Below, piece after piece: positions 12,295 to 56,329 of a stretch of 64,000 nucleotides of DNA. The position numbers and the translations under genes were made by a program. The stretch comes from Phoronis australis (lineage: Eukaryota > Animalia > Phoronida): assembly GCA_002633005.1 (NCBI GenBank), contig NMRA01000348.1:297065-361064 (forward strand), written 5' to 3'. Below the pieces are notes generated by a model. That model was given only the letters and a program-made list of their open reading frames with translations, did not search any database and was not told where the DNA came from. Position 1 is the first letter of the stretch; the number at the start of each line of letters is the position of its first letter.

Positions 12295-13260
12295 CTAATC
12301 TTGATGGCCAGAGTGACTGGTTGCCATGACGCGTCCTACAAAAACAAACCACATGTTTAGCATGAGGTCATTGTGGAGATTTGGACATTGTGGTATGACA
12401 TTGAAGTGCCAAATTTAGGAATAAAAGTAAGTAGGGGAATCTAAGCGCCACAAAGTGGGTGGAGTGTGACAATACATTGTACTTTTGGTCTCTCATTTTT
12501 CACATTACTCGACTCTTCCGTAAACGGTATGAGGTGATTTACCTTTTCCAGAACTATTGCTCTTAAGCGACGTTTGTGATCTATTGTCCACTGCCGTCTC
12601 ATTTATCGTGTTATAAGCCGCCGGCTCGTCAGCTGAAACAATGCAGACCACAATAAACGGAGAACAATGTAATGAGGATTGACATATCGAAAAGGTGGCG
12701 AATCCAATGTGTAATTAAGTGGACATTTCAAAGCAAAAATGTCAGCGTGGCATCTAGTAGGACACGTCGAATGCCTTGTTTTAGTCGAGTTCAGCTGGGG
12801 CCGGGTCCCCTTCCCTCCCTAAACCGACCTATGCAAAGTAGGTAAAGTCACGTGATATCAGGTTTTGATTTACCACGGTTTCGATTCAAAGCATTAGTTG
12901 CTCACATTCACGGTTCATGGTCGGGAAAAGGGCTGCACCATGGTAGAGGTTTCGTTTAGATTTCCACAAAACAAAATGTCCATATATTTATCTCCAACTT
13001 GTACTCGTTCGTAAATACCACGTTACACCATAAACGAATACCGTGCGTGTATTTCCTACCTGTCTGAGGTTCCATAGCAGTTTCTTGAAGGCTCTGTCGG
13101 GATCTGTCGTCCATTGAAGAGCTTCCAACGCGTTTGTTCTTCTTCAACTTAGAGCACACAACGATAGCAATCACTACAGTCAGGATTAGGACAAGAACGC
13201 CACCTACGGCCGCACCGATGATTATTCCTATGTGCACGCCGGCGGGAGCCTTGGTTGCCA
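12295..13260 (-). CDS. Large gene exons encoding the single transmembrane helix and cytoplasmic tail
   Basis: IGIIIGAAVGGVLVLILTVVIAIVVC followed by basic stop-transfer SKLKKNKR; tail ends GRVMATSHSGHQD*. Confidence 0.9.
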
Positions 13261-16200
13261 CTGAAGAACACAATCGGATAACGCTTGAGCCATGAAAGGT
13301 AACGGAACGGAGTGATTTTATTCATAAAAGACTACTACATTATGGACACTAGGCTATTAACAGAATTGCCATGTGAAGGAAAAATTGTACGTTAATCAAG
13401 GAACAAAGGCATTTCCCGATAGATGTAGCAGTAGTGATGCATTTTTCAACCTCATGCAATAGAAATGCTTGGATGTTATGTTATAACCAACCAGAATGTT
13501 TGGATGTTAAAGCAATGAGAAATCACGTTGCAGGGCCAATCTATAAAGTTTCTTCTCACAGTTTTAAAAAGAATGCACACAGGTTAGTAGAATTGGCGTC
13601 GTTGAAGTTTCAATTCACATACAGGTGTAGCAATGTTGTTTTTCCGTAGCATGCAGATGAGTTAATTACGAAGGACTTACCGGGTTGGGCAGTGGTCGGA
13701 GCAGCGGTAGTCACTGCAGTCGCGACAACAACGAGAGACCCGGGCACTGTACTCAATGTGTTGCCACTCAGATCTTTTATGGCTAATGTACCGTTTGCGA
13801 TGGCAGTAGTTAGGACGTTCATGACGGCACTCGACAGAACAGTCGATGCGCCTGTTGGCGGCAGGAGGTCAAATGTCACGATTATACTTCCTGAAATGAT
13901 CAAATCAGCAACTTAATCAAACAAAATGCCTTCGACCACAGACTGCGAAGGTAATATACGAACATTTGTAACAATCTTTTTTAAAAACACTTATGGTATA
14001 CATGTCCCTGTGTTGCCTTATTGCTTTCAAAATGTGCCATTTTCGCAATCGGAATTTTATGATTTTCATGAAAAAACAAAAGAAGATGCATGAAATAAAA
14101 ACAAAATGATTTCTTATAAATCTGTATGGTAATTTTTAAAATTTAGTCTTGAAGAGTAATATCAAATAAAATTTGATCATATTACTGATACCGTTTTTTG
14201 TTCTCTGCATTGTTCTTTTTGCCAAATATTATCAAAAAGGCATGGTCACGTGACTTTATCTCCGGCAGATTGGTTAAAAGTAAAAAAACTAAGTTGTCTG
14301 TTTTAAGAAATCATGTACTCTTTGTTAAACTCTAAAGTTTTGTAGATAAATACAGGTTATAAATGTACAACGTACTGTTTGCACCAGTGGTTAAAAGTAA
14401 GAAGTCAAGTAAATTAGCAACGAACGACGGGACCTTTATAAGGTCATTATCTGCGCAACCTGCGCTGATGATATTTGGCAGTAAATACACGCCACTACTG
14501 GAAACATTATTTTATGAATGTACCTGCACACCACATTAACAAACAATAGTTATAAATCTGGGCCATAATCTCGCGAAGGAAGGGTGTGTGGTCACGTGCT
14601 TCGCTTGCACAGTACGTGTATTACATGGCGATATCTCGGCAGGCAGAAGTGGCTAGGGCATATGTTTATGTAGCTTACCGGATTTAACATCCAGGTTCTG
14701 AATTCTGGTTCCATCAACGCCAAGTTTGGTGGCGAGCTGGCTTTTGAGCGAGACCAAGAACTCAGATTTGTTATTGCCAACCACGTCGCTGTAGTTGGCA
14801 TCGAGCTTGAAGGTGACCTCGACTTTGGGAGCGACATCATTCGGATGGGAGGATTTTGTTGTTGCGACTGGAGTTGCTGTAAGATTAAGGTCAATTTGGA
14901 AATGAGACGCTCTTCATGGTGATAATGCCCGGCTTCGGTGCCAGAAAAACAAATCAGCACATGTGCGCAGACATCACATTCACAAAGATATACAGTAGGT
15001 TGCACAAAGATATGTCAACTGAACATGGTTCCAATCAGTTATGGACGAATGTTGAGGAAGAAATAGCTACGGACCTCGCTTGCAGTCGATGAACATTTTC
15101 CCGCCAAGTAGCCAGTCCCATATCGCACACTTCGGATTTGCATGCAACTAATTTCGTACACAGTCATTTCATTACAAACATAACCTGTCTATGTATGTGA
15201 TGAGGTGAGAATCACAATTGCAGTATTTCGCACACATAAGCTGCCGCTGACGTTGTACCATAAGGATGGTCAACTATCCAGGGTATGGTTCATGAAATGT
15301 TACTTAAGACTTCAGACACAACTTTGGTTGTAGGCTCCAACTTCACAATTCTTGAACACGGATTTAGTCACGTGATCACGAGCGCGTCGAAATCAAGAAA
15401 TAGCTTACGGAGATTATCTCAGTAACTATCAGTTTTGTGTATATTCTCAGACATGTAATTATTTTTTAGAAATATTTGTTTGGAGCCACTTAAATAGACC
15501 CCAAGTGAAGCATTATGGGTGAAAACAGACTATTGGCCCGTTTAATGCAAAGACTGCAACGACCTGCAAGCGTGACCCATAAAACATGCCAAGAGCAGTT
15601 CACGGCGATTATTGATAAACCTACAGCATATAGTACATATACGACGACAATGTTCTTATCTATTCACAGCATTCCAAATGTGTAGTGCCCATCGTATTTT
15701 TTATTCTTGAGCTGCTATCATCAAACAAGAGGGGAGTCCGGCATGCGTACGCGTATATTAGTTTCCAAAACAAACTGGACAAGGTGGAAATTAAAGTTCG
15801 GATGCACAAAGCCGTGATTAAATATCCACTTCTATTGGTCTAGGATCCGTTTCAATGTTCGACATCTTGAAATGTTGATAGATGTTACTCCACGCATTTA
15901 GCCGAAATTGCTGCAACTTACATGTAACGAATGAGGCATTTACATGTACAAATAAGCAATGAGTGGTTGGCTACAATTGCACCCATTAAACTAAATATAA
16001 ACTTTGTTATATTTTATTATGATAAAAGCTCGACTTAATTAATCTGGCAAGACGTTCGTCGTAGTATAACGGAGACTGACGGAGTTTTGTCGGAGTCTGT
16101 CTCATTCATTTTGAAAACTACTGCACGTGTAAACTGTGTAGCAAAATGTCATGATTGGATAGAGTGTGAAAGCGGACATCGCCTAAGGGTACTACACAAT

Positions 16201-19200: not shown

Positions 19201-22200
19201 GACACAAAAGTCACAATCTTAGGCTGCCAAGTAATCACTACTAGGTTGCAGACGTTTGGGAGAATTTTATTTCATAAACCGAATCGTGCAGACTTACTTG
19301 TTGTAGCAGCTTCCGTTGTTGGAGCTTCTGTGGTCGTAGTGGTTTCACTTACAGGGTCTCCTTCAAATACACTGGAAGAAAAGAAATTGTGTGTTATTAA
19401 AAATGCATAGGTCCCCAGTCACTTGCCCTCAAACAATCTCCTACAGACATGTACCGCAAGAGTTGCAGGGCCTATTTCATAATAAGTGACTTCAGATTAC
19501 AGTGAGAAATTCCGTCTTGCTCACCAAACATGTAGTTCTGAAAGGTAATTTATCTCGCAACGAGAAGAAGAAGAATGCTGAATGTCATTGAAAATCACCC
19601 ATTATTTCTAGCTGTTGTGATCATACTAAATTTTCTCGAAACTCAGTGTGACATGGCAAAATATATTTAGTACATGATGTTTGCGCTTAAGTTTAACTTT
19701 CGAACTTAATTATTTGTAGACTTTAATATCGTTTTTAAAGAACCACCTCCTGCAGCATGAGGCACTGCCCCTGTACAGAACTGAGTTTGTCATAACTGAT
19801 CATACACATATACATGTACTCAGACAAATTGTTGTGAACATTCCATAGCACAGACCGGTAGAAAAAGGCCTGGCGTTTCTCCAAGCAGTCATCATAGCAT
19901 TTGGTGAAGGTGAATGTAAATGCTGACAAAAAACAACGTAAAGAACCACCGTTTGATTTCAATGTCAATTGATGAAGTGGGTAACACAACAATGAAAATT
20001 ACACTATATGTGTGACTAAAACTCACGCAACAAATCCGAGACTAGTGCAAGAGCACGTGACGTAGTTCACGCCGTTTTCTTCAAACGGGTCCGAAGAAGT
20101 ACAGTCGGTTGTTGTCCAGTCATCAACGTAACTCCACTTATGGCACTGGAATATAAATTGGTAACTTTAGAAACAAGTGTGGTTTCTTCTACGTACACGT
20201 TTTGAACAAAAAACAAAACGATTCTAAATAAGGTCACCTTTGAGGGAGTAATAAAAATACACGGGCATTTTACTGTCTGAAGCTACATGTACATGTACGT
20301 ACTGTACTTCCTTGAAGCAGCGTTGTTTGGGAATAACTTCGACATACATGTAATTAGTTTGTTTTGCATTTCGCTTCACAAAATCTCGGAGAAAATAAAG
20401 TGAAGTGGGATATTATCTTTAAAGGTTTGTAACCAGGTGACGTCAACAACTTTACGAATATAAAATACCTGGAGGCTGTTGATGGTTGTATTGACCTCTC
20501 CTGTGACCGGTATCTTGATTTTCATTGGCTTAGACAGCCCCGTCACGTGCAACATGGAGAAGACCACAGTCTCTTCATATTTGTTCGTCTCGGGATTAAT
20601 AAATCGGACTCCTATCACATCACTTCTAATGTTCTTCGTCAAAGGAGACAATGCCGTGGTGTTGATGCTGATGATATTGTTGGGGAGTTGACTAGTTGCC
20701 AGGCAACCACCGTAACAGGTCAGTTCATTAGTACAATTCCAGGTAGTGAACTGATCTTGCATCGATTCTCCTAGTTCCACCTATTATAGACAGAAAACGG
20801 AAAATTTGTACATGAGGCGTGCTGGGAGATTATTTCTCCATCATTCACTCGAGAAGCAGGAGGGCAGAAATCGAAAAATCCAGAAACCGAACTTCTATAT
20901 AAAAGATTAGTTAACTTAACAAGTGTCAGTATCAGTTTATACTTACAAGCACAACTACAAGAGAAAGAATTGTTGTCAGCATTGTAGTAAAAGTGCCAGT
21001 TTGCTAGCGGAAACTAAGAGACGCGGGATTGCGTGTAGGCTAAGGTAGCCGATGCCGTGCAACCTAAAAAGGACATCTTTCGCAGTCTTTCTGCTTTGTC
21101 GGCACTTTAATTGTCTTGTATTTCAAGAATTAGCAGAAATGTCAAGGTTAAAAAGAAATCGAATCAAATTCGAAATTACTATCTGTCCAAAATTGTGCTC
21201 TGAACTATTTGTATTAGAAAACCCATAAATTAACTGCGTCTTGTAACGTATTTTAAAAGTTGAGCATTATATGTGGTGTACACTTGTATGTTATGTCACA
21301 TCTAGTCAGAAATGCAGTACAGCAAAGTCGGTCCTGAAGGTATTAGGTCACAGATACAATGCCTCTTGGCTCCTTTTGGGTCTGCATACTCATTGTACTG
21401 AATATTTCACAATAAACATTAAAAATGTATTATGTACCGACATACCGTTGCCGTGTTCTTTATGGCCGTGCAGTTTTCGCACGCAACGTTCAGAGAGGTG
21501 TTGAATACGTCATCAAACAAGCGCATGTCCATTTTCATTGAGATATACTTGTCGTCAGTTGCGTATAGCGTCATTCCAGTTCCCATTGAACGGCAGAGGC
21601 CTTTCGTATAGGTATCAATAGCGGCAAGATAAGTTTCAACGTCGCTGCGCGCGGACGATTCGTTGACAGTAGCCTTGAAACCGTTCAGAAGAGTTTCAAC
21701 CTAATGAAAAGAAAAGTGGTAACTATAAACGAATTGAAGGCAATAAGTTGTAATAAAATTCTAAATGACTCAAATTATTTGCCTGATTGGCAGAATCATT
21801 AAAAACATACTTTTAATCTTCAACGAAAAATTTACCTCAGACACTTCGAAACTATTCAACTCCGTTTGAGAAGATACTGCCCTCTTCCGCCGACTGGAAG
21901 ATGAGGATGAAGACGACGTGGCGGTGTCTTTCGTCATGGTCGAAGTCACATCTGTGACCATCTGTAAGGTTGCCTGTCTGTTGGACTCAGAAAGAGGGAT
22001 ATCTCCTGTACTCTCCAAATAATCCAGAGCACTTTCTTTGTCACTGTAAGCAAACAAGTACATGTACTCAGTGCGGGAATCGAAAGAAAACGTCAACATA
22101 ATGAGAATTATCAAACAATAAGCGTGATCCGCAAATGACCCGTCACTTTCATTTCCGAGGTACGGAAAGGTCTGCACGTAAAACTCTATTTCAACTATTA

Positions 22201-25200
22201 CGCGCAAAACACCTTTGACTTTTTCATATAAAATTTTGGGGCGAAAACACATTTCTCATATACGTGTATCTTAGGAGCAAGTTTAAAAACTCTATCTGAA
22301 GTCTGCACTTGTTACTAACGATGTGACTGGGGCAATCGAAAGATTTATGCTATACAGCGATGGATTGTCACGACTGAATGGTGATTTACTTTTGTATTTT
22401 CCATTCACTATTTTCATGTTCTATCTTCAAGAAAGTGACTGTCAAATTTCATAGTTGGTCTTCAAGCGAATTGGCAAATACATGTAGAGAGGCGGGCGTA
22501 CTGAGTAATAAAAACCGACAAATGGCACATAATACGTCTAATAAGTTCGATGAAAGAGAGGCGTTATGGACTTCTTAATTAATTCTTATTTTTGAAATTT
22601 TATGAAAATTTGTCAAATGATTCCGAAGATAGAGAGAAACGTTGAACATAAAAATGAACATTAATTGTCGAATCTGCCCGAAAGTAGCATCCGTCGCAAG
22701 CTTCATAGGAACAAACAGTCCAACTTCCATGCAGATTAACCAAAGGATTGTGGGGATACATTAGTTGCGGAAGTCGAAAATTCAGACAGAGATTGAAGCA
22801 ATATGGACCCAAATGTTTTTGCAGGCCCATGAAAACCGTTGGAAGGCATTCAATACAATAACGGTCATGTGCTCAACACTGAGGCCAACATTCTCGGAAC
22901 CGCTTGAATTGACCAGCATTGCTATCAAGCTGAAGATTGAAAACATACCTGGTGTCAACATTAATAAGCATGTCAGCTAAGAGGGTATCCCTTTTAGCTT
23001 TAATTTGAGCCAGCAACGAAGAGTCGTTGATCGACGCAGTGAGCTGAGTAGTCGCTTGCAGAAAGCCAGAAACATCCGCTGTAATAAAATGTAAATGTGG
23101 ACTGTTAAAACACTTAAGAGGCAGTCCATATAAAAACCAGTGGATTTTCAAAAATCAGTCTATACGTCAAAATTTAAAACAACTTCATTTTTTGTACATG
23201 GGTAGGTATCCTAACAAAAACCCAAATGCCAAATTTTGTGCACTCAATGACCCCTAATTTCGCCGCTGGAGCATGATAACACAAATTGGCACAATTGGGC
23301 ATATTAGCCGTCTCAAAAANAAATGTGGCCGAAAATGGCTTCAGTGAAAACCTAAAAAATAGCCGTTTTTGCCTCACAAATTCAAAACGTATCAATTTAA
23401 AAATGGATTTTGAAAGTTATGCCATTAAATTATTCAGCCATTGCCCTTTCAATTCGTATTATTCATTTGTTTTGACCCTATCATACATGCTAGTAAAATG
23501 CATTCAAACATGCCTACTTCGACGCCCAATTTTGTTGCAAAATGGAGGTACAGGTCATAAAAAGAAAAATAATGAATGAAAATTCTTAAAAAGTGAGGTT
23601 TTTCTACTTCTCAACAAACCAAACGCATGTGCTAAGTTTCAAAAAAATCGGTGATTTTGGGTATAGACTCTACCTGTTGGTTTTTATATGGAGTCACTCT
23701 TAACAGTTTGCGAGATTAGTAATGAAGATGCAACATATATCATGCCTGTATTCTGTAAGTGTCTTTCATTTGTGTCTTCTATTTAGAACACAAACTAGTT
23801 TTTCAATGGACAAGTTACATATTTACGTTTTTTCATTGAATTTCCTAAGTTTCTACTTAGGATCGATATTGGTTTTAGTGCTATTTTGACTGCCATATTA
23901 TTGGAAGGTAGGCCACCATGAAGAAATTTAAAAAATCAAACTAAAAATTGCGTCTCGTTTCTGCCTACTCCGGACTTTTTAATGTAACATTCAGAAACAC
24001 ACCTCCTATCTGTGATTCGCCCTCGACATCCTCCATCAGTGCCAATAAGCTAGTAGGGTCCTGGAGTTCATTCATAACAACCTCGTAAGTAGACGACTCT
24101 GTACAGATTCCGACAGAGCTACAGGCGACGCCACGAATGTAATGGGTACCTATGAACATAAGTGACAGTATCCTTTGCAAGAGCCATTATCGTAAGCGTT
24201 TGAAACTTTCCTGACAGGGAAGGACAAGTTACAGATTGTACGGCATTTTTTATGGTTGTTGATGCCGGAAAAAGGATGGCCAAAAGTAATTATGCCATAG
24301 GACTTAAGGGGGCGATGACTGCAATTCCTGGGAAGGTCTTCATTTTGTATGGAAACAAGGTGATTTGGTTTACCAAAGCCTGGGAACCCAATGCACTAGA
24401 TGAAGAACATTTTTGTAAATACATGTAGTTGCGATCTGTGTTGGAATTTGGAATACATGTAGTGCGTGATGACTACGGAAATGGGAAGCCCTAATGGTGA
24501 TTGGTAAAGAGTGTGTGGGTAGCGAGACCCAATTTTCACACCCCTCCGCTGTCAAAGTACCCACACCCCTGCCTGTGTCTGTCAGGGTAACTCCTAATCT
24601 CAGACACATAACTGTCTTGCAATTGTGGGGTTAGACATATTACCAAACTGACATTAATGCCCATTAAGTTCCATACCTGCCGGTAATGTAAGCTCTTTAG
24701 TGTCGCTGGTAGTTGGTAACCCTAGTCTTTTACATTCTTTAATTTGAGTTTCAGCAGATTCACACTTGAAGGCGTTGGTGCTGACAGAGGACATGTCCCA
24801 GTTCTGCGACGTTAGCGTTATTTTATCTTGAATGGCGGTGCCGTTTAATGAAGAAAGCTGCAGAAACATACAATAAGGCATGCTTAATGCATACAGGTAC
24901 ATGAACATGGAACCCGTTGTGAATATTAGAATCATGGTTATTGTAACATGTCTGAACACAGCAATGGGCGACTCGAAATTCGCTAGGTGGTGCTAATGAA
25001 TGAAATCCCCTGCAGTTTGGGTTTGACATCCGAATGGTGAAAGGGAAGAACGTAGCACGCATCAGTATGGTGACGCTCGGGTGAAAAGAGACACGTGTGA
25101 TTTGCCTGTAGAGAGACACTTCTGTTCTATACCTTCCTTGTGAATCCTATGCAATGCCTACTGTCCTATTTGACAAATTTCAAAAGATGCACGTCAGCCA

Positions 25201-28200: not shown

Positions 28201-28205
28201 TACAG

Positions 28206-28295
<90 letters not shown>

Positions 28296-37200: not shown

Positions 37201-40200
37201 GTGCGCGTGTGTGGAGCAGGACAATTATTGCATTACCGGTGACCTCATGGCAATAAAACACTGACTAAATTAAACCAGACTAATTCAAACGGGTGATTTT
37301 TCTGTCAAATTGACTTCCTAAATTGAATTCTCTTTGAAAAAAAAAATGTTTTGGTCGGATTTTCTCACTGAAATTCGACAATGGCTATCCAAAATACATG
37401 TACGATGTCATACATTCTGTTGTGCTTACCAAGAGTATGTTTACTGTAATGCCAGTTACACAATTCGTTTACGACGAGTGTGCGCAAACAAAAGATTGCA
37501 AGGAAGCTTTAACTGGTTACCTAATCCTGGAAACTCTTTTAGTCTGGAGTTGAAACTGCATGGGCCACATTTACGACTACACCAGAAAAGTATTTATATT
37601 AAAAAACAATAAAAAGCACATCAGGACGCATCTATAAACTCGACCTGGCACATCAACAGAATTTCATTCAAACTATCCGAGAACGAAACCGTTAAATGTG
37701 TGAATCGTTTTTCTTCGTGTGACAAATACATGCAAACTCATAAAATAGGACGTCATTTTCGTAAAATGTAACAATGGTGCATTTCTTTCATGTGCATTCC
37801 ACGTAATGTTCAACAATTACATAAACTGTCACAGCTTATTACAGTTCAGGAGAGGCCGGGCAATGTAAAATGCAACAATGCCGTAAAATGAGCAATTGCT
37901 ACATTTTACGAAATCGTTACATTATACGTTTTACCGGAGTTTGTCAAAGTGGAACATCACTGTCTATCCTGCGTGACATGGATCTTGAGTCGTGTGGTCA
38001 TGGGAAAGAATGTGCGATCAAATTTCTTCGTACGATTTTTGGGTGCTTTTCATACTGCACCCAATATGTACTTACAGGCGGTAGGCAGATCGGCTGCGGA
38101 AGAGAAACATTGGATCTCGCAGTCTTGTTGTCGCTCATATCCCAAGCAGTGAAGAACAAGTTTGTATATTGATACGACTCGGAAATTCTCCATACGCCAC
38201 TGAAAAAGAAATTATGCAAATGGAACGTATAACAAGCGGAAATTCACTTCAAGGTGACACAGTGAGCAACAGATAATCTGTTATTATATCTTATCATGGA
38301 ATGCGAATCCTGGTGCAAAACAAATTGTTGGTTGGACTAACGATCTTCATTCACTATTTTTTGCATGCAGAGTGAAAAAACTGAAGTCGAATTACAACTT
38401 TTAGATAACCGGCGCTGCCTTACTTTACGGAGACTCTCAGAACAATTTTCAACGAAGCTCAATTGACTTCCANATATCACAAAGCAGATGACCAAAATCA
38501 AGAACAAGTGGAATCTGACAAGGCCGAGGGTACTCGAGTATTTTTGGACGAGGGGTGAAACCCGAAAATTTGGATACCCACCCATTTAGAGGATCGGCTC
38601 GGACAAAACAGTGACCCAAATTTTGTGTAAATCACTAAAAGAAATAATTCTGTGTTGCTCGTGATACGCATGTTTTTAACTTCAAGAAGAATGATTTCAA
38701 AGTGAACCTTGGATTTTTGGCCTGAAATTTTCACTACGTGACAGCAGAATTGTTGGTAAATTGAACCTCTGTGGAGTTGTGATTTACATTCTAAACATAA
38801 AAACTCACTTTTGAAATTTACCGAATGTCCTTCAACAATTTTGGGATACCAAATGTGATTCCAAAGAATTATCAGTACAAATTCTAGAAATTTACCAAAT
38901 GATAAATGCTCTTCTTGTGAGGATGAGTCAGATCTTCTTTTGCATTTGTACTGGTTTTGCAATATTGAGCAGTGTTGATGGCGTTTACTGAATGGATTTG
39001 TTTAAAGAAGATGGGTCATTTGAGGTAACGCCCGATTGTATATTTTAACTATTCGATGGGTGTGTACTACGTAAATTAATACTTTGTCTTAGGAAACTAT
39101 GCTTATACAGAAGGCTAGAAAATTAACCAAATTTAGAAGTTGCCGAAATGGAAACCATCAGTTATCATGGTGTAGATAAATGAATATTTTAATCACAATA
39201 AAAATTCTTGGACAAGTCGACTCCTTTGTCGTACATGTATTTAGTTCTCTTAGGTATTTAGCTGTTCCCCAATATGTGTGTGCGCGTGTGTGGAGCAGGA
39301 CAATTATTGCATTACCGGTGACCTCATGGCAATAAAACACTCACTAAATTAAACCAGACTAATTTAAACAGGTAATTTTTCTGTCAAATTGACTTTCTAA
39401 ATTGAATTCTCTTTGAAAAAAATTGTTTTGGTCGGATTTTTTCACTGAAATTTGATAATGGCTATCCAAAATACATGTACGATGTCATACATTCTGTTGT
39501 GCTTACCAAGAGTATGTTTACTGTAATGCCAGTTACACAATTCGTTTATGACGAGTGTGCGCAAACAAAAGATTGCAAGGAAGCTTTAACTGGTTACCTA
39601 ATCCTGGAAACTCTTTTAGTCTGGAGTTGAAACTGCATGGGCCACATTTACGACTGCACCAGAAAAGTATTTATATTAAAAAACAATGGAAAGCACAGCA
39701 GGACGCATCTATAAACTCGACCTGGCACATCATCATTCAAACTATCCGAGAACGAAACCGTTAAATGTGTGAACCGTTTTTCTTCGTGTGACAAATACAT
39801 GCAAACTCATAAAATAGGACGTCATTTTCGTAAAATGTAACAATGGTGCATTTCTTTCATGTGTATTCCACGTAATGTTCAACAATTACATAAACTGTCA
39901 CAGCTTATTACTGTTTAGGAGAGGCCGGGCAATGTAAAATGCAACAATGCCGTAAAATGAGCAATTGCTACATTTTACGAAATCGTTACATTATACGTTT
40001 TACAGGAGTTTGTCAAAGTGGCCCATCACTGTCTATCTTGCGTGACATGGATCTTGAGTCGTGTGGTCATGGGAAAGAATGTGCGATCAAATTTCTTCGT
40101 ACGCTTTTTGGGTGCTTTTCATACTGCACCCAATATGTACTTACAGGCGGTAGGCAGATCGGCTGCGGAAGAGAAACATTGGATCTCGCAGTCTTGTTGT

Positions 40201-43200
40201 CGCTCATATCCCAAGCAGTGAAGAACAAGTTTGTATATTGATACGACTCGGAAATTCTCCATACGCCACTGAAAAAGAAATTATGCAAATGGAACGTATA
40301 ACAAGCGGAAATTCACTTCAAGGTGACACAGTGAGCAATAGATAATCTGTTATTATGTCTTATCATGGAATGCGAATCCTGGTGCAAAACAAATTGTTGG
40401 TTGGACTAACGATCTTCCTTCACTATTTTTTGCATGCAGAGTGAAAAAACTGAAGTCGAATTACAACTTTTAGATAACCGGCGCTGCCTTACTTTACGGA
40501 GACTCTCAGAACAATTTTCAACGAAGCTCAATTGACTTCCAAAGTTGTGTGGTTCCCACTGACAGTCTGTTTTTCCTACTGTATAAAGAAGCCCAATAAG
40601 ACTATTAATTCAAAACCGTTGACTTCTAGCTCAACACTTGCAACGAAACGGCAGGTCATCGCCACAGATTCTAAAGCAGGAGATAATTAAATGGGACGCA
40701 AAACACTAGGAAGAAGCTGATGTGCTCCTACTGACATGAATTCTCATGAAGTTAATTAAGTGCAAGGTTCGTCATTTCCTGTGACGTACAACTGTCCCAA
40801 CAAAACAGTTTATGTTACATAACAATTCCGGGACATCTTGTGTTGTTGTTTACTATGTCACTGACCAGTGTCTAATCAGAGTGAAACTCTATACAGCCTG
40901 GTCACTTATTTTCAAGGCAATATAGAGCATGTAAACAAAAAAGGTAAACCCATTGTCACTCTGGTACTCGAGTTAAACATTATAACAGATGAACATCTAT
41001 GTGTACCTACATGTAGATTACCAGCGGACAACTCACCCAGAAGAGTTATATCGAATTCTGTAATTAGGGGGCAGCAGTAGAGCTGTGACATTGATGTTGT
41101 ATTCCATAACTTTATGGACGGAGTTTAGTGAAAATATATCTTCAGGGTATTCTCCGGTCAACTTCTTGATATTGCTCTGTGTGAATCGAGGCACCTTCTG
41201 CAGTTCTGTGACGATATCTACCCAGTTGCCTCCTGGCGATTGATACTGAAATTTTCCTGGAACACCCAAACATGTTTTAGTGCTAAAACGCACAGATATT
41301 GACCAGTAATTGATGATCGTGTAAAATACTAATTAGAACATTGAAGGAAAAGTAATGGTAAATCAAGTTAACGTTACCCTGGAGTAGAACCCATTCGAAA
41401 CCAAATGCTAGCATCAAAACTCAATGAATGTTTTCAAATTAAGTGTTATTGCACGAACATGTACTGCGTTTGTTATTACCTAGAACTCAAAAGGTAGACC
41501 GGTGTGCATTGGTACCTAACTATCTTTGGTATAATAAACAACGACAAATAGCGTATGGATGAACGTGACTCGTTAAAAACATATTTGTCCAATTCCAACA
41601 TTCGCCCCCACCTCATCAAGAGATAAGTCATGGCGCTAACCTTTCACACTCTCTTGAGCTACAAGTACAGCCATTCCTGTTCCGCGCCCATCGTCGTCCG
41701 AGTCCTCGAAGAAGGTTGCAACGAGGTCTTTGACCATTATACCTTTGTTCTTCGACGGCTCGAACGGGACCAACAAGTCTTGCGGGGTCTTGGGACTGTT
41801 TCCAGTAAGTATCTCAAGTTGAGTCTTAGGACGCATGACAGGCGCATCATTCTGATCTTGTACCTTTGTAAATGCAAAATTTCGAGTGCTGATGATTACA
41901 ACGGTCAAGCAAGAAACCCAAGTCAATGAAGAGATGCAATGCTGATTCCAACAGAAACAATTAATTAATGGTTACACTGTTCCTACCTAATTACGTTTAA
42001 GTTGATATGCGTCCAGTCCGAGGCCCGGGGTCTAATCTTTTTATACGGACCTGGGTTACCAGTCCAAGCTACATTACCATTTATAGCCTTGTTAAGTTAA
42101 CGTTGCCATGGCATAGAGAGTTTGCAAGAAAAGAACTTGTATCCACGGAGACCACAGGTCTATAATTATAGGAGATAATTGTCTTGGTATTTTAGTTGCT
42201 TCGTAAAACAATAACCATTTGTAAAACCCTTTTACCTGAAATTCTAAAACCGTCAGGTTACCGCTGATATCCCATGGTTTCGGGAATTGGAACGGATTCT
42301 GAAAGGTGTCCTTGAGGTATGGGCGTACGGTGAGACGGATAATGCCGGTGAAGTCTTTTGTAGGTCGCAGAGTTATTATGCTCCTGGCTCCGACAGGCGT
42401 AAATACCTTTTGTGCCAACCTTCTTCCCGCTGGATAAAACACCACAGTTTATGTTCAGTTACTCGTGACGTCCTTAACGTATTCGACAATAACAAAATAC
42501 ACTTACCAATTTCTTTCGAAAAATGCATGCGACTCTGGCACATCTATCTATTGTCGTGATGTTGCACGTCGCTGCACGATTTAAAGCACTGTGATTATGT
42601 CTAGATTAATGTACATTTTGTATTCTAAATGCATGATCACACTTTCACTCCAAATCCATTATGTCATAACCACAACATAGCTTGAAGCTGGCAGTTCAAT
42701 TAAGCCACTGCCGGAATAGCCAGTGCACCAACACCACTAGTTGAACAGCGTTGAACATATCTTACCGACGGTAAACGTGCCGTTGATGTCCTTGTAACTC
42801 GTTGGTATATCGGTGGGGCCAACTAATAGCATCGCCTCCTCTTTATCCTTGCGAGTCCCCAGCATTTTAACATACTGATCAATCATGGCTGCATCCGCTT
42901 CACCAAGGAGGGGTACCACTTTGGAATCGAGTCCTTTGTTAAAAAAAAAAAAATTCCTTTCGTGACTGGCATTATGAACGGGAACTCATTACAAATCACA
43001 AACATTTCAAGTGTCGTCTGCTCGCCACCTATTGGCCACATGAGGTGACCTAACTAACATACAAAGAAAATCTTGTCCTGGTAGCCTTTCATTGTTCTCT
43101 TCACTTGAGGCTACCAGAGATCCACCCCGAAAGAATGAAACAGTGCATTCAAAACAAACCAAGTTCATAGCAGTTTTTATTAAAACTCCATAAAAACACA

Positions 43201-46200
43201 GAAAAAAATAACGATAATATCTCGAAAGCCCGAACACACTTGACACACTCCCTTTGGGTTTTAAGGAAAAAAAACTACAAACTAGTCTACTGAGTATTGT
43301 TCTGTTCATGTCTGTGAAGCTCAGGTCGGATTAATACAGTTCTCATTATCAGCCATTACCCCAAGTGTTGCGATAAAGCACTTAAACGTAATTTAGTCTG
43401 TGTAGGTTTGCATCTTGCTCGCGTGCATGTTTCAAATTGTGTTTTTGAAAGAAAAGGTCATATCAACCACTTTATGACAAGTTTTCGTTTTCCATGAAAT
43501 TGTATAAAGTCCTACCCTTCGTAACCCTTATTCTAAAAGGCATGTATTTGACAACAGTTTCTAACGTATTTCAGAGAACAGTTCTTAAAGCAAAGTAGCA
43601 GAAAATTTCACTTGAATCCAGTCACTAGATTTCAATTTTGCACGCTTTCTCAGGGTCGTACAAGACCTTTAACCAGACAGGTCTGTATCTTACATGTATT
43701 TATTGATGTGAACCATCTTCCGTGACAGGTTTTAATACTTATATTTTTTACAGTTTAGCAGCTCCAAAGATTGATAACTGAGCTGCGATCACTCAATAAA
43801 TTTTCCCGTAAGATTAATTTACATGGTCTACAAGGAGAGTGAATCCCAGACGATGAGGATTAGTTTGACGACGAGAGGAGCAAAGTGAGTTCAGAAAGTT
43901 TTGACAATGAAGAATAACGTGTATTAGATTCTAATGAATTACACCACGTGTAGATGTATTTAGACCTACGTGTTTTCACAGTCACATTCTGTATAGCAGT
44001 TAGACATCAGTATCCTAATATCCCTAACGTACATGAGTTTTAATTGCTAATTAAAAATTCCCCAATAAGAAAACCAATATGATACCGTTTCAAAATTTAA
44101 GGACGCGTTCCTTAACTCAAACACATTTTGAAACAGGAGATGTCTTGCTTCACGGAACGAAAACCGGGATGATTTTCCAACAAGTCGATTTAATTACGTA
44201 CTGCGATTACTCGATAAGCGCTTGTATTTCGCTCTCGCGATTTTGCTTGTTCTCGCGTGATCTTGCCTCAAAACGTGGTTTTAGTGAACCCCATCATGGA
44301 ATTAGCCTACTTCAACTTACGTGCTTGGTTGTTTAGTTTGTCTTCGTCAATAACTTCGACGACTGATGTCAAGTTGACCTCTACGCTACCATCTTCTGGC
44401 AGTTTAAACGGTGGAACTTTCTTGAACTTGTAAGTTGCTTGGTTACTGGAAGGCGGAACCAGTATTGACACTGTGTGGTTCAGTGCACCTACAAAAGCAG
44501 GCTGAGATCACCAGCTGGCTAACGTCGTACATGCATAATGTAATCAAAAGTACATCTATATGATTGTCTATCTGCCACTATAGTCAATGTGGGCCGACGA
44601 GTATATTTAAATTCTAATTATCTCATCCATCATCAACTGTACTTTTATCCATGTAACCCAACCTATCATATTTTGACGAGTGTTTGGTACAATCCTTAAG
44701 TGTACGCATGACGCCCCCTCTTTTCAGTCAGGCTTCATAAAGGTAACAACTCGTCATAGTGAAACTTTGACCAAAGATCGACAAAAGCGAAAACGAGGCT
44801 ACATGCATATTCCGTGTACCTTAAACACTGCCTTTCCACAGTTGCGCATGAACTGATGCAAAAGTTTGTAGAACACTCTGTTTTATAGCGTCATGTAAGA
44901 CAGTATTCCATCTGTTTTGAATAAGTGCTTTCCCACTATCCTCTTCTCATACAACGCATCCCTCTATCCGTAAAAAGTTTAACTTGTGAACTACTTAACA
45001 TGACTTAACAATTGACACTGATAGTCTCGTCTGACAAACATTTTCTTCCTCAAAGTTTTTCAAAAATAGCTTATCACACATGACGCTAGAAATTGGCCAT
45101 TGCCCACAGACCAATCGAATCTTTGATCCAACAAATACCAAAAATACAGCGGTTTTACATGGCCGCCTAAACAGCGCATTTTAAATCGTGTGAGGTTCTG
45201 TGTAGCACATATTATTAAGCGCAGTTCCCTACAAAAGGCTATCTAATTTGATCTCAAATGACTATAGAAATCCTTAATTGTCGCAAATATCTTTGCGCTA
45301 AAAGTTGGAGACGAACATCGAATTTTAAATTTACAGTAGAACGGTAACGGACTAGAAAACACGAAGTGTTTGTAATCTGGTAGAATAGGCACCCATTCGT
45401 AGTTTGCTAGCGATTTCTTTTAGAGTAAAGTGTTTTGAGTCAGCATATAGAATACAAAGTACCACGTACTTACGTTACCCGCTAAGTTTAATACTACAAT
45501 CATCTCATACGTGGGGTTGCACAAGACATAACCTCACCTTCCCCATCGCCGGTCGTGACATGAACCGTGAACATGCCATGCGACTTAGCATCCTTTGGCA
45601 TCAGAGTGACAACGCCACAGAGATCCTGTTTGACACTAATCTCGTCTCCTTCCTTCAAATTCCGTACATCTTTCGTGAATTCGGGTTCGATTTGACCTGT
45701 GAAAATCTTCGTTAGTTCTTCTTTTACTTTGTCCAACGTTGGTATTTCTCTCTTTGTCCTTTTCCCTAGCTGGCCTATGTTACCGTCTATTGTAGGCTTT
45801 GTGAACGTCTCCCCGGAAAAGCTGAACGTCATAGTTTCTGGAATTTGTTTTGTGATGTTTCCAGGTCCGAAGAACGTCTGTACATGATGAAACAGGTTCA
45901 TCACTTGCGATGCGTTACACCTTGCAACTGCAATGGTAGAAAACGATACCAGCCTTGATTAACGTAAAAGTGGTGTTTCACGCAAAATGTATCAAATTAC
46001 CTTTTAGTTTGTATTATCGGCTCCTAAAGGCATTACACTTTCTAAAATTTTAAAACAAGCCAAACTATTAATCCGGCTTAAAATCACGTTGAAGCCATTT
46101 ATGTGAAAATTCCCGTTCGACACAGTGATAATTTTGAACAGCGAGTGCTCAAGGCTTAGAAGCAGTACGTGTAGACATAGCTACATCTGTACGCATACTG

Positions 46201-49200
46201 AAAAAGCTCCTTCCACTTATTTTGTTCCATGATTACACAACTCTAGCAAACACCATCAAATAGTGTTCTGTAACAAAATGTTTGTTTTTGCGAAAACTGT
46301 AATAATCAATAACTAAAGCAGTTTGATATTTCTCAAGCAGGCCTGGATAACTGCTCAGTATAAGCGGGTCTTAAAGCGCAGTGTCTGTTGCAATCGGCCT
46401 TTAGAAGACCAAAGTAAAGTGTCGGCCTTTTTGGCTAATTTAGTGCTAAAATTCCGATATCGATGTCCTAAATTTAGTGTTTATTGGAAATCTCAGACAT
46501 TCCAGTGCTTATAATCATTTGTCCATTTCCGCTCCACCCAACAACATGTACATATTAAAAGTTGCCACAAATAACTACCCAATCTAGAAGATGGGCAACA
46601 GTAAAACAAACAGACTGAATGTGTTAAATTGCAGTTGGACATTGGGCCACCGAGAAAATTATGTGTAGAGCAAGAGGCCTGTATGACCCGGAACCTCATT
46701 TTTGTCGGCGCTTGCGCAACACCCTTCACGATATGGGAATCGTAGGGAAGATACACTTACCTTCGCGAATCGCAACGTGAACGTCTGGAGGCAACTGTGC
46801 AATTCTTACAGTCTCGTTCACGCGCAATTTCAACCCTTTAATGATCAAAGACACTGGCGCATACTTCCAATACATGACTGCTTGACTGGTTCTGTTCTCG
46901 GCCATCCCTATCAAGACAATTGATTTTTTTAATTTAAAATACGGAAAGCGAAAAGGCGTGAAAAAGAACCCAAAGCTAATGCAACCGTGACGTCTAGTCT
47001 TTAGAGATCGTCTGCGATTTTCAGCTCAGGCAAAATTAACTTGTTGGTGAATTATAATAGCCAAAACTTTCCGATTGAAGTGATGCTCTCGTACGTTTGC
47101 ACGTCACTGGACTCACATGTTTGTTGTAAACCATTATTGTTTAAATGAAATAGCATTTTTCTCAAACTACTCTCTCGAGTCTTGTAACAGTACAGCTGAT
47201 TGAGCTTAATTACAATGTTGGCGTGAACGCATTATCACACAGAAGCCAATTTCATTCTTTCAACAGCAACGTCTTGTACAGTTCAGAAGCCAATACCAAG
47301 GGAATTTCAAAAAAATATAGATTGCAGACAAAATCACGTGGTAGGCATTCCAGGTTTTGTGTACAGTAGTATTCTATGCATTGTCTGGTTTCAACTGCTT
47401 CTGGTTTTAAAAATATGAACATTTGGTACGATAGTGTCGTCCTTTATTACGATGTGAGATTCCATGTGAGTCTTGTGCGAGACTCGACGTATGCTGCTTT
47501 AAATTCGCGCACTACAAAATAAGTTCTCCATGTAAACATATAACAAAAAATATTTGCAATACATGTACACGCGATAGATTGCTGGGTCACTCGCGTGAAA
47601 GTAATGTCATATGTTTAAGACAGCAGACGTTTACCTTCTTGTCGGTCCAATAGACACGTGAGGGTCGGGCAGCCTGCGTTGCAGCACCTGTACGGCTCTA
47701 TGCAGTCACCGTCGGTCCTGCAGCCCTTTCGAGTAGAACAGTATTCCTTCTGTTTATCGATGCTGGGGAAGGTCGGCTTGGGGGGACACGGGAGCGGCTT
47801 CTTTAGCGACAAACAAGAGATTTTAAGTACTTCAAAATACATATAGCGTGACATTTTATACAGTATAAATTATGCGGCATATTTAGAATACAATTACGAA
47901 AACAGTTACCGTGCACCTTTGTGTTTTTTTTTTTTGATTAAATGAGGTATCTGCACGCGTAACAAGCGAAATGTCCTTTACTGGTGATTGGGTACCACAA
48001 ACGCGTTTCGTAGAAGGAAGGAATTTCTGTAAAATTGCTAGTGGCTAGTTGCAATAAATAGCGATATATCGCAAAGACGTGAGTGATCTTGCGTTTTCGC
48101 GTGAGTTTTGGCGTGTATGGAACTCAGCCCTGCAGGGTATTGTTTTTTTCCAACTCTTGCGTTGTAGACATGCGAAGGAGAGAATTTAAAACTAATTAAT
48201 TGAATGAAAATACACTTAGTAACGGTATATAGATGACACACATGTATATCGAAGAGAAATTGTCCTAACCAGGTAATCGTAACATTATAGGACGATTGTT
48301 CCTTTTAAAACACGAGTCCTGTTTTACTGACGCACATAGTTTCGAGATCATGGCTGCGTGTTTGTTGAAGATGTACTTAATTCTGTTTCATAACGCCAGG
48401 TTATGTTAATGGCAGCTAAATCTCTAAAAACAAATTACACGTCCTCTATTATAAACTGTTTTCAACATTAAAGAGTTTAGACCAAGCTACACACGAAGGT
48501 AGACCAGAATCGTCTTTGTTACTCACGAGGATCATGTCTGCCTTTCTCTGGAGATATATACACTGTAATAGTTTGGCAAAAGCGAGCTTTATAAATAGTT
48601 TTTTCCTCCAAAACTGTCCAGATTTAAATAAAACCACTTACCATAGTTGTCATGACAGGCCGAGTGGTCATGCACAATCTAGGATTCAGTTTACACTCGT
48701 CTTCCGGTTCCTTTGGCGGCATTTTAGGGTGAAAAAAGAAGCAGCCATCTCCAAGGAAGATCGGAATGCTCGCATTTGTGTTACCGTCAAGTCTGGGACG
48801 CGGGATACTGACATTGTTCATCATGAATACTTCAAAGGAAAATGAAACATTTCTCGGTGGTAGCCATCGATTTGGGCCATTGGGGTGGCTGTTGTTATTT
48901 GAATGTTTTAATGCCGGTTGCACTCGATCTATGACGTCAAACCACGTAACGTTCTGGCTCCCCGGCTTTGGCTTTATGGCGCTAACATTTCCTGCTAATT
49001 CTCGAACAGTCTCGTTCAATTTTTGCAGCCATTGCTTCGGGTCAACAGCTAGTCGCTCTACTTTGTGAAATAGCTCAAAAAGTTGTTGTGGAAAACGGAA
49101 AGGTTCGACATGGTGACAATTATCAGCGGTACTGTTGGAGTTGCTTGAGTTACTAGACACGTTTCCATGATTCTGAGCTGTACCATTGACGGTACAGTTA

Positions 49201-50370
49201 TTCATCGGAGGCCCCGTTTCGTTTTTTGGCGGCGCATTGCTTTCTCTGTCCTTGATGAACTCAAACAGCTTATCTCTCGCCATCTGCGTTTTATTTGCAG
49301 CATAACGGCCGAAAAACCATTCCATGTACTTGTTGTAGAACATGTTTGTCATGTTTTTGATTTGAGCTGCATCCAGCATCGACTGGCCGGCGCTAGCATT
49401 TCCTCCAATGGGCTGATCCTTTGTTTTCAAGTACTCCACCAGAGGATAATGTGCGGATAGATTTTTTGGAATGAAAGGCCAAAACCGCGTGTTGTTCGAA
49501 TCAAAACACTTCACTTCGCCCATGGTTGTATTGTCGTGTTGAGGTGTGTGGGGCTGGTGTGTAACTTTTGGCGCCCCGGACATTGAATGCGTCATCATTT
49601 CTTGTGTTGGCCCTCCTGTCGTCATTGAATGCGTCATCATTTCACGCGTTGGTGAGAAAGAACCCATGGGACCCCTTGTAAAATCTGACTTATGGTAAAA
49701 ATTCGGCATGTCGTTGCTAAAGTTACTACGCATGAACCGCCAAATAAGACACTCCAGAAGTTTTGTGCCGTTGAAAATTTCGCAACTTCTGTTTTCGGCC
49801 TTGTCTGGCTGTGGCCATATTTTGGTATTGTTGCCCTCAAGGAAGGGCCACTTGAGAGAGCCGTTTCCTCTGTTCGGAATAGTTAGGTTCTCATGCGTCA
49901 GGAAGTGGTCAAATTTTAACCAGAACCTCGTTTCATTAAAGTCCGATGGCATTCCCTGTCGTTGTGGAGTCGGCCCAGTGGTTGGTTGCTGATTCGTGCT
50001 AGCCTGTGGCGCCTGGCTGGAACCGGCTGGTGGCTGTTGAGTACCGGTGACGGACTGCTGAGTTGTCGTTTGATGAGAGATTCCCACCAAAGCGAGCGTA
50101 AGGATGGCAAAGAATACCCCGCCTGTAATATAAAATGCATGATTGCTGATCATTGCATTTACATGTACCACTATTATCCCGTAATCATTATCGTAAGCAA
50201 CACCTTCTTCATAGCGGTTATTGTTGATTTGTTTTTTGTCGTCGTTGTCGTTATCAAGAAAATGGCTTTAGACTTTTTATGCGAAAAATGCAATAATTAT
50301 GTGTTGGAAACTTACGTAAACACTTCCCCAAATATCGTGGATATTCTTTTTCAATTGATTTACTTGACAT
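12295..50370 (-). CDS. Giant single-pass polycystin-1/REJ-like adhesion receptor (~2,803 aa, 40 coding exons): SP-WAP-cadherin-like-Cys-rich-IPT-REJ-GAIN/GPS-SEA-TM
   Basis: Phase-consistent GT-AG exon chain: 50370-50316, 50122-48642, 47800-47635, 46907-46761, 45927-45538, 44488-44321, 42933-42766, 42429-42236, 41863-41641, 41256-41037, 40268-40145 (or duplicate 38199-38076), 35344-35185, 34514-34313, 33732-33572, 33155-33019, 32673-32449, 31994-31756, 31323-31118, 30563-30391, 29953-29815, 28668-28574, 28032-27808, 27570-27447, 27070-26862, 26729-26596, 26297-26071, 25584-25331, 24857-24677, 24149-24003, 23078-22949, 22043-21836, 21700-21446, 20780-20469, 20145-20027, 19371-19298, 14876-14679, 13890-13681, 13260-13060, 12632-12543, 12335-12295 (TAG). 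Total 8,412 nt, divisible by 3. Confidence 0.88.
13681..14876 (-). CDS. Large gene exons encoding a membrane-proximal SEA-like module
   Basis: VEVTFKLDANYSDVVGNNKSEFLVSLKSQLATKLGVDGTRIQNLDVKS-GSIIVTFDLLP, flanked by Thr-rich linkers. Confidence 0.7.
20027..22043 (-). CDS. Large gene exons encoding a GAIN domain ending in a GPS motif
   Basis: SDVIGVRF...LHVTGLSKPMKIKIP followed by CHKWSYVDDWTTTDC...VTCSCTSLGFVAVF (C-W-W-C-CxC GPS pattern). Confidence 0.85.
23118..23699. mobile_element. TTAA-flanked non-autonomous DNA transposon (Kolobok-like MITE) in an intron
   Basis: TTAA|GAGGCAGTCCATATAAAAACCA ... TGGTTTTTATATGGAGTCACTC|TTAA: ~22-bp TIRs with TTAA TSD and purine-purine 5' end; contains one N at 23320. 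Confidence 0.85.
24003..28668 (-). CDS. Large gene exons encoding a REJ (receptor for egg jelly/polycystin-1) module
   Basis: LTPGFSYVFKVWVSN, YTFTVTV, LEAEIAGP...LILDASTSIDPN...FSWGC, LAPNTL..YMFTVTM, APAEGDF..LNGTAIQDKI..NWD and LTLPAG follow the REJ pattern (LDGSxSxDP; PxxG..GxAL..WxD..LPxG). Confidence 0.85.
27100..27295. repeat. Intronic degenerate (GCT/GAT)n low-complexity tract
   Basis: gctggtgctgctgatgctgctacttctgctgctgctgatgatgatagtgat; produces spurious ORFs in four frames. Confidence 0.8.
28207..28380. repeat. (CA)~42 microsatellite followed by a degenerate (TG)n tract
   Basis: Pure CA run 28207-28290, then CGCA/CA variants, then TG-rich 28330-28380. Confidence 0.95.
29815..33155 (-). 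CDS. Large gene exons encoding IPT/TIG-like and other Ig-like beta domains preceding REJ
   Basis: INVTGAGFVDTGFVECF...ATRFSDTLVEC resembles IPT/TIG (xVxGxxF...xxxxxIxC); six phase-compatible exons. Confidence 0.6.
30905..31020. repeat. Intronic (CCA/CCG)n low-complexity tract
   Basis: gccaccgccacacc...ccaccactaccaccaccaccactaacc. Confidence 0.7.
33572..35344 (-). CDS. Large gene exons encoding Cys-rich DxCGxCxG / DCAG repeats (ADAMTS Cys-rich-like start)
   Basis: GCDGRIGSVAQVDRCGVCGG, DRCGNCTGG, DCAGNC, CDGVFGS, DQCGTCQG, DCAGVPWGG and DACGKC across three exons. Confidence 0.8.
36232..37928. mobile_element. Foldback-like element with long TIRs built from AAATGTAAC units
   Basis: Left CGTAAAATGTAATGATTTCGCAAAATGTAACAACTG matches the reverse complement of the right end CAATTGCTACATTTTACGAAATCGTTACATTATACG; near-perfect hairpin at 36279-36340. 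Confidence 0.65.
36438..40541. repeat. ~2.05-kb near-identical tandem duplication (36438-38472 and 38474-40541) joined by a single N
   Basis: Both copies begin ATATCACAAAGCA and end AATTGACTTCCA. They differ by scattered SNPs and small indels, including a ~38-bp segment near 38686-38724 absent from copy 1. Confidence 0.95.
38076..45927 (-). CDS. Large gene exons encoding cadherin-like/bacterial Ig-like repeats
   Basis: Motifs LPEDGSVEVNL...IDED, LRPTKDFTGIIRLTV, FQVQDQNDAPVM, FEDSDDD..GMAVL, GKFQYQSPGGNW, ALLLPPNYRIRY and LFFTAWDMSD. Confidence 0.65.
47635..47800 (-). CDS. Large gene exon: WAP (four-disulfide core) domain
   Basis: CPPKPTFPSIDKQKEYCSTRKGCRTDGDCIEPYRCCNAGCPTLTC has eight Cys in the WAP spacing CP...C...CxxDxDC...CCxxGC...C. 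Confidence 0.85.
48642..50370 (-). CDS. Large gene exons 1-2: signal peptide plus 1,481-nt exon encoding a Gln/Pro/Thr-rich, N-glycosylation-rich N-terminal region
   Basis: ATG at 50370 (ACA-ATG context) with GTAAGT donor gives MSSKSIEKEYPRYLGKCLR-GVFFAILTLALVGISHQ (hydrophobic core). The 515-aa ORF in the track covers exon 2. Confidence 0.8.
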
Positions 50371-56300: not shown

Positions 56301-56329
56301 GGGGGGGGGGGGGNNNNNNNNNNNNNNNN
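56301..56329. other. Poly-G run abutting a 16-N assembly gap
   Basis: G13 followed by N at 56314-56329. Confidence 0.95.

Follow-up and report, generated by a model that had tools for sequence, protein, structure and literature searches.

Our analysis of a 64,000-nucleotide stretch of the Phoronis australis genome (assembly GCA_002633005.1, contig NMRA01000348.1, positions 297,065 to 361,064 of the forward strand; hereafter the window, in whose own numbering all coordinates are given) points to a minus-strand gene of 40 exons encoding a predicted single-pass receptor, in which a GAIN domain that likely cannot cut itself precedes a SEA-like domain with an intact cleavage motif close to the membrane. 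These features suggest, with a probability that we put at about one half, a MUC1-like receptor of the adhesion or glycocalyx type that can be shed and carries an uncleaved GAIN domain, a reading that draws on the sequence, on models of related proteins and on analogy with known systems. The domain order supported by the analysis runs from a WAP domain through a bacterial-type cadherin-like region, Cys-rich repeats, REJ, GAIN, a Thr-rich stalk and SEA to one transmembrane (TM) helix and a tail of 74 residues.

In sequence terms the existence of one minus-strand 40-exon gene was confirmed. The exon chain was rebuilt from six-frame translations and splice candidates on the minus strand, independently of the exon list in a preliminary description of this DNA. 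A first chain of 38 GT-AG exons ran without an internal stop from the ATG at 50370 to a stop codon ending at 12295 (2,740 residues), and a splice-and-codon scan brought in two more exons, 46835-46761 and 12632-12543, each starting and ending in phase 1, for a total of 40 exons and 2,795 residues. The acceptor at 28668 was chosen because that at 28716, which was dropped, creates an insertion that is absent from the Dimorphilus relative P0016; the final model (50370..12295, minus strand) comprises 40 exons and 2,779 residues with a single stop. An open frame at 25795-25585 was not taken as an exon, since the model already aligns without it. Reading phases agree at all 39 exon junctions. When the chain stood at 38 exons, a score at or above the 90th percentile among all GT and AG sites (leave-one-out) was reached by 36 of its 37 donors and by 32 of its 37 acceptors, a test that is partly circular and thus not independent because the sites had been chosen partly by consensus; the GC content of the same chain was 48.2% in exons versus 37.9% in introns. 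An independent test of the chain is provided by P0016, which 13 of the 40 exons match singly at E<=0.002 and without any break in their order, and to which residues 712-2745 of the model align as one high-scoring segment pair (HSP) of about 2,030 residues (24% identity, E 1e-137). It is chiefly this colinear match that speaks for a single gene running from the WAP domain to the TM helix, and the weak point of the model lies in exons 1, 2, 4, 5 and 40, which have no homology support and are placed solely by phase and splice sites. RNA from four runs carrying the same species label gave 58, 54, 39 and 12 records on 31150-51149 (exons 1-18), most of which matched partially and lay outside exons and none of which showed a splice junction, a result that speaks neither for nor against expression of the gene; Rfam returned 0 matches. 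The preliminary description had proposed a 40-exon chain in frame from signal peptide to stop and a single-pass protein of about 2,800 residues with no channel or multi-TM region. The rebuilt chain reproduces its exact limits, and hydropathy analysis finds one strong TM helix (3.1) in the whole model, encoded together with a basic stop-transfer stretch by exon 38 (13060..13260, minus strand) and followed by the tail and the stop.

Relatives were sought with exon 20780-20469 against 1.84 billion representative sequences, yielding 20 matches at E<=0.001. Two of these, P0001 (V-set repeats) and P0020 (filamin), were discarded as spurious matches to repeat proteins, and 15 are short frames of 91-162 residues. 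The long relatives are P0016 (DgyrCDS10766 of Dimorphilus gyrociliatus, 3,417 residues), P0017 (921 residues) and P0002 (a 435-residue 'GPS domain-containing protein' of Bugula neritina) with its cluster mates P0022 and P0023; Dimorphilus is an annelid and Bugula a bryozoan. P0015, a piece of the Bugula sequence, was kept out of the alignments. Fourteen of the 15 short frames were aligned, and 13 of these 14 lose the match at Q/E/K-V, exactly at the donor of the window exon, suggesting that the intron is shared and the family wide. The Dimorphilus relative is colinear with the window protein from WAP to TM and the Bugula relative from GAIN subdomain B to the tail, and, like the window protein, the relatives end after one TM helix. 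DgyrCDS10766 and DgyrCDS10767 were considered as tandem paralogues and rejected as such, since their identity over the last 3,148 residues makes them likely isoforms. No further member emerged from word-based searches with exon 22 (against proteins of 133-2,000 residues), with residues 1400-3250 of P0016 (2,560 candidates, returning only P0016 itself and P0028) or with the family alignment (0 of 7,808 proteins of 763-2,175 residues), blanks that mean little because the members share almost no exact 5-mers. PDB sequence searches gave nothing useful, and in an Atlas search with the GAIN and SEA region of P0017 no lead reached 0.9, two of the three being GPS clusters.

The likely loss of self-cleavage can be located in the GPS, which is encoded together with GAIN subdomain B and the start of the Thr-rich stalk by exons 33-35 (19298..20780, minus strand) and retains the GPS Cys/Trp pattern in exon 34. 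The canonical GPS triad is His-Leu/Ile-Ser/Thr (PMC13197933). The window protein carries S-L-G and the three Bugula entries T-T-G, P0016 and P0017 lack the His, and an H-L-T/S triad occurs in none of the six GPS-bearing sequences. In latrophilin-1 the substitutions H836S and T838G each block cleavage and permit folding and surface transport (PMC3321182). Since the Ser and Gly of the window protein stand at the equivalent positions, its GAIN domain has likely lost the capacity to cut itself. Upstream, exons 30-32 (21446..23078, minus strand) encode a region that is helical in the P0017 model and is taken as GAIN subdomain A; it contains a furin-type RRKR at residue 2262, and R-x-K-R is found in the helical region before subdomain B in all three sequences covering this site. 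An 8-residue insertion in subdomain B of the window protein (20469-20780, minus strand) is missing in all 16 aligned relatives. The REJ module, with the domains leading into it, is encoded by exons 18-29 (24003..31323, minus strand; PF02010) and was detected by Pfam on a single exon (27070-26862) at 27.4 bits (cut-off 25). On the whole of P0016 Pfam found neither REJ nor GPS; on P0016 without its N-terminal repeats REJ was found with E 9.5e-16 over profile positions 12-391 of 452.

Close to the membrane, exons 36-37 (13681..14876, minus strand) encode the SEA domain and a short Thr/Ala/Pro stalk, and the motif GSIIV lies across their junction at residue 2600. A GSI(I/V)V motif is present in all six aligned sequences and in a paralogue within the window (7 of 7). 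Its Gly-Ser falls in the loop between strands 2 and 3 of the SEA domain in the models of both P0002 (strands 253-259 and 263-270; motif at 261) and P0017 (strands 653-659 and 662-670; motif at 661), and both the predicted ferredoxin-like fold beside the membrane and a G-S-V/I-V/I-V sequence in this loop are as in MUC1-type SEA domains. Cleavage in the strand 2-3 loop occurs at GSVVV for MUC1 and at GSVVV or GSIVA for GPR110 and GPR116, and force separates SEA domains that have been cleaved (PMC6954182, PMC9564314, PMC10327162). About 170 residues of stalk and SEA separate the GPS of the window protein from the membrane. The tail, encoded by exons 39-40 (12632-12543 and 12335-12295; 12295..12632, minus strand) together with the stop, has a sole Tyr (residue 2743) in the context A-x-Y-x-x-I. 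The exon chain, the S-L-G triad, GSIIV, RRKR, the TM helix and the tail Tyr are all read directly from the sequence.

The folds, on the other hand, were judged on models of relatives, namely Bugula P0002 (mean predicted local distance difference test score, pLDDT, 51.8) and P0017 (mean pLDDT 51.7). In the VIA comparison, residues 1-181 of the Bugula model matched the GAIN domains from adhesion G-protein-coupled receptors (GPCRs) in 8 of 50 rows, with CELSR1 as the best of them (Z 8.6, root-mean-square deviation (rmsd) 4.4, 151 residues aligned), and residues 204-320 matched Trop2 (Z 10.4, rmsd 3.1, 106 aligned), the SEA domain of MUC16 (Z 7.3) and that of Gpr126 (Z 7.0). A Trop2 match was found again with the P0017 model (Z 9.5); the Trop2 domain concerned is a SEA domain. 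GAIN and then SEA, in this order, are thus predicted from the relatives with low confidence. In the P0017 model the REJ region adopts FN3-like folds, and its Foldseek rows are mostly FN3 or Ig chains. Chains of the doublet-microtubule axoneme (8glv_AE, Z 7.7; 9fqr_Hn, Z 7.2) also match residues 1-181 of the Bugula model, the GAIN-B part.

Several observations weigh against the proposed reading. Both models have a mean pLDDT of about 52 and represent relatives rather than the window protein itself; the top Foldseek row for the Bugula model, the GAIN domain of BAI3, has a best E-value of only 0.0049; at similar Z the SEA part of the Bugula model also resembles Cas6 (Z 8.6) and RRM domains; and no GAIN domain is among the 50 rows listed for the P0017 model. 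The three Bugula entries are 96-97% identical, so that the six aligned GPS-bearing sequences correspond to four independent genes. One register places a Ser at the P+1 position of P0016 and P0017, and a missing His does not prevent the cleavage of BAI3 in brain (PMC3321182); the loss of GPS cleavage is therefore firm only where P+1 is Gly, as in the window and Bugula proteins. Likewise, a Gly-Ser motif is no guarantee of SEA cleavage, which is decided by strain in the loop (PMC10327162). Weak points are also that Pfam gave no GPS match on the window GPS exon, with scores of 16.5-17.6 bits in Bugula under the cut-off of 22.5, and no SEA match on any of 23 sequences.

The lost GPS triad together with the intact SEA motif beside the membrane suggests that the ectodomain is likely shed by the mucin route, and from this we infer the following functional steps. 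The SEA domain would cleave itself between Gly and Ser while folding, the two halves remaining bound, and a furin-type protease would nick the helical region of GAIN. At the cell surface the WAP, cadherin-like, Cys-rich and REJ parts may bind matrix, other cells or microbes, and load in the form of force or ligand pull would separate the SEA halves and free the large adhesive ectodomain, as in MUC1. The remaining stub may signal via the tail Tyr or by intramembrane proteolysis, and the role of GAIN would be structural or elastic, not that of an enzyme or a tethered agonist.

Comparison with known systems shows which parts of this architecture are familiar. A REJ module followed by GAIN/GPS, the GAIN fold scoring modestly, places the protein in the broad PKD1/REJ family (Gunaratne 2007). 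Polycystin-1 and PKD1-like proteins share this succession but have 11 TM helices, a PLAT domain, a channel region and a coiled coil, whereas the window protein has one TM helix, a SEA domain before the membrane, a non-canonical GPS triad without the His-Leu/Ile-Ser/Thr of self-cleaving GAIN domains, and a stop after its 74-residue tail; 11 TM helices, channel and PLAT are all missing. Its GPS does not lie directly before the first TM helix as in canonical polycystin-1 and adhesion GPCRs, and hydropathy shows no 7TM region. MUC1-type mucins and other proteins with a juxtamembrane SEA domain resemble it in having SEA next to a single TM helix, a GSVVV-type motif and a short tail, but the ectodomain of MUC1 is a tandem-repeat mucin and that of the window protein consists mostly of folded domains with REJ and GAIN. 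SEA and GAIN also occur in one ectodomain in GPR126/ADGRG6, GPR110 and GPR116, where the SEA loop is cut by furin or by itself; in GPR126, however, SEA precedes GAIN, GAIN cleaves itself and a 7TM region follows (PMC6954182), while in the window protein the order is reversed and a 7TM region is absent. The sea urchin receptor SpREJ1 is similarly a glycosylated surface protein with REJ, GPS and one TM helix, but differs in its 1,450 residues, its EGF and C-type lectin domains and its testis-specific expression, and no SEA domain is described in the available text (PMC1934368). A coral REJ protein is multi-pass (PMC4890752), and PKHD1L1 has a juxtamembrane SEA domain (PMC11527881); both have another architecture. 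Single-pass REJ-GPS proteins (SpREJ1, SpREJ8 and SpREJ9; PMC1934368) and the combination of SEA and GAIN, in the opposite order in GPR126, were thus known already, and what appears to be new is the succession GAIN-SEA-one TM and its occurrence across phyla. We found no paper on a single-pass REJ-GAIN-SEA or GAIN-SEA-one-TM family in a literature search whose coverage leaves out most subscription papers.

The most serious alternative, whose chance we consider only a little short of even and which is compatible with a sheddable receptor, is that the gene is an orthologue of sea urchin SpREJ8 (EF216328) or SpREJ9 (EF203419), a family with cloned members that are expressed in embryos (PMC1934368, PMC13672419). 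Compared by published description, these proteins of about 3,000 residues (3,274 in SpREJ8 and 2,965 in SpREJ9) likewise have a signal peptide, a partial REJ module, a GPS, one TM helix and a long upstream region without a known domain, and SpREJ9 has a Ser-rich N-terminal region (PMC1934368). One 7-residue primer peptide of SpREJ9 finds its best P0016 match in the REJ region (score 28 versus 18 for the next), a weak match that is the only one among four primers, since its partner primer finds no counterpart at the distance expected and both SpREJ8 primers remain unmatched. On the other hand, SpREJ8 and SpREJ9 have 30 and 29 exons as compared with 40 here, their GPS was assumed to be cleaved, the available part of the paper makes no mention of a WAP, cadherin-like or SEA region (PMC1934368), and there was no named echinoderm protein among the 10 sequences from the family search that were looked up. 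Also conceivable, but unlikely, is a role as a non-signaling partner in which an uncleaved GAIN-REJ arm relays force to an adhesion GPCR or a polycystin-2-type channel sharing its membrane. Such a role would be in line with the one-TM isoform of Drosophila Cirl, which pairs with the 7TM form for mechanosensing, with the partial unfolding of non-cleavable GAIN under force (PMC13197933) and with the stepwise unfolding of the PKD1 REJ module (PMC1934368). It fits poorly with a 74-residue tail that is too short for the PLAT domain following TM1 in PKD1 proteins (PMC1934368) and with the distance of about 170 residues between GPS and membrane, as the GPS lies directly before TM1 in adhesion GPCRs and PKD proteins (PMC3321182).

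A receptor for self/non-self or microbe recognition, its N-terminus variable and its tail acting through a Tyr, appears equally improbable. The N-termini of the window and Dimorphilus proteins are wholly different, a tandem paralogue about 10 kilobases (kb) upstream has an L-x-Y-x-x-V tail, and all four tails examined contain a Tyr, at positions not shown to align; the A-x-Y-x-x-I of the window tail, however, does not fit the consensus of the immunoreceptor tyrosine-based inhibitory motif (ITIM). Slightly less probable still is a chimeric model, with exons 1-2 or 1-5 belonging to another transcript or the true start lying elsewhere. The missing homology support for exons 1, 2, 4 and 5, the long basic lead on the signal peptide and the break in the assembly at 38473, marked by an N and a duplication, are in keeping with this possibility, but the matching phases at 39 of 39 junctions, the match of the WAP exon to P0016 at the right place, the colinearity of P0016 across the duplication and an N-terminal stretch that is the model's most hydrophobic apart from the TM helix argue for a single gene.

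The preliminary description is, overall, partly supported. Its order of REJ, GAIN, Thr-rich stalk, SEA and TM was recovered, with REJ detected by Pfam and GAIN followed by SEA by modest fold matches on relatives, as were the N-terminal WAP (by Pfam), cadherin-like (via P0016) and Cys-rich parts (ADAMTS_CR_3, below cut-off). Of the domain hits on which it would stand or fall, REJ was found by Pfam and GAIN by fold in Bugula, but GPS and SEA gave no Pfam match above cut-off. The family was called uncharacterized; the records found indeed bear no functional name (a CDS number, 'hypothetical' or 'GPS domain-containing'), although SpREJ8 and SpREJ9 could be orthologues. Treating single-pass REJ proteins as a SpREJ1-type exception was overstated, since SpREJ8 and SpREJ9 were also cloned as single-pass proteins (PMC1934368). 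The description overlooked that the GPS is degenerate, that the SEA cleavage motif is intact and the furin-type site conserved, and that there is a tandem paralogue.

Beyond the sheddable receptor itself, we tentatively propose an old invertebrate family in which a non-catalytic GAIN domain persists and the break-point has moved to the downstream SEA domain, that is, a hybrid of REJ-GAIN and MUC1 architectures with force-gated shedding, a Tyr-bearing stub and a swappable N-terminal recognition module, although on balance we would not count on it. Research on adhesion GPCRs and polycystins has still to establish what GAIN does without cleavage, a 7TM region or a channel, and here the domain appears to be kept across distant invertebrates with its triad gone and paired with an intact SEA cleavage motif, the window GPS carrying the very two substitutions that were engineered to abolish latrophilin cleavage. 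The family is nearly invisible to Pfam and may account for the unannotated upstream regions of SpREJ8 and SpREJ9.

The N-terminal half of the protein begins with exon 1 (50316..50370, minus strand), which has a strong donor but no homology and encodes the ATG and the basic start of the predicted signal peptide. Exon 2 (48642..50122, minus strand; residues 19-512) encodes the signal core, part of an N-terminal hydrophobic stretch (1.81), and then, by composition, a Thr/Gln/Pro-rich and an Asn-rich region; it contains 26 N-glycosylation sequons, as compared with 33 in the rest of the protein, and shows no Pfam match above cut-off and no similarity to the P0016 N-terminus (z 0.7). In place of this Asn-rich exon, DgyrCDS10766 carries near-perfect Cys-rich repeats that extend over about 1,050 residues (residues 40-1085); these repeats are longer in P0021, and Pfam mislabels them as phage tail tube. 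The WAP four-disulfide core of exon 3 (47635..47800, minus strand; PF00095, 21.7 bits, cut-off 20.8) matches the module at the same place in P0016 (z 5.0). The linker of exons 4-5 (46835-46761 and 45927-45538; 45538..46835, minus strand) carries a furin-type RTKR at residue 649 that was not seen in P0016, and its homology to P0016 is not significant (z -1.0).

Exons 6-11 (40145..44488, minus strand) encode the bacterial-type cadherin-like region (Big_9 or Cadherin_4/5), identified via P0016, in which the aligned 400 or so residues after WAP score 0.95 with Big_9/Cadherin_4/5 clusters; exons 9 and 10 match P0016 singly, and Pfam found no match on the four exons of this region that were scanned. 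The Cys-rich repeats of exons 12-14 (33572..35344, minus strand) are of the D-x-C-G-x-C-G-G type (ADAMTS_CR_3, E 0.0014, below cut-off) and match P0016 as well as P0028, a 2,780-residue ENA protein with bacterial-type cadherin-like Pfam domains. Exons 15-17 (31756..33155, minus strand) lie inside the single HSP to P0016 and probably encode immunoglobulin-like domains, presumably of IPT/TIG type to judge from their pattern, with no Pfam match above cut-off.

The tandem paralogue is represented in the window by its 3' end on the same strand (60136..62810, minus strand), comprising two SEA exons, a TM exon (61278-61060) and a tail exon, and its 5' part lies beyond the window. Its SEA exons share 53% identity with exon 36 and 48% with exon 37 (tblastn), with GSIVV across their junction, and its tail contains LLYDNV, which fits L-x-Y-x-x-V, an ITIM-like consensus. 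A gap of 16 N (56314-56329) lies between the two genes. A tandem duplication of about 2 kb (36438..40541), with 97% identity and one N at the join at 38473, likely reflects two haplotypes that overlap in the assembly. It holds a second copy of exon 11 (38199-38076), identical over 124 bases; the two copies may alternatively be mutually exclusive exons, and their inclusion in one transcript was rejected because the phases clash. Within introns, a dispersed transcribed repeat at 40735-40891 attracts many stacked, diverged RNA reads (90-95% alike, with loose ends), and a long TG microsatellite occupies 28200-28330.

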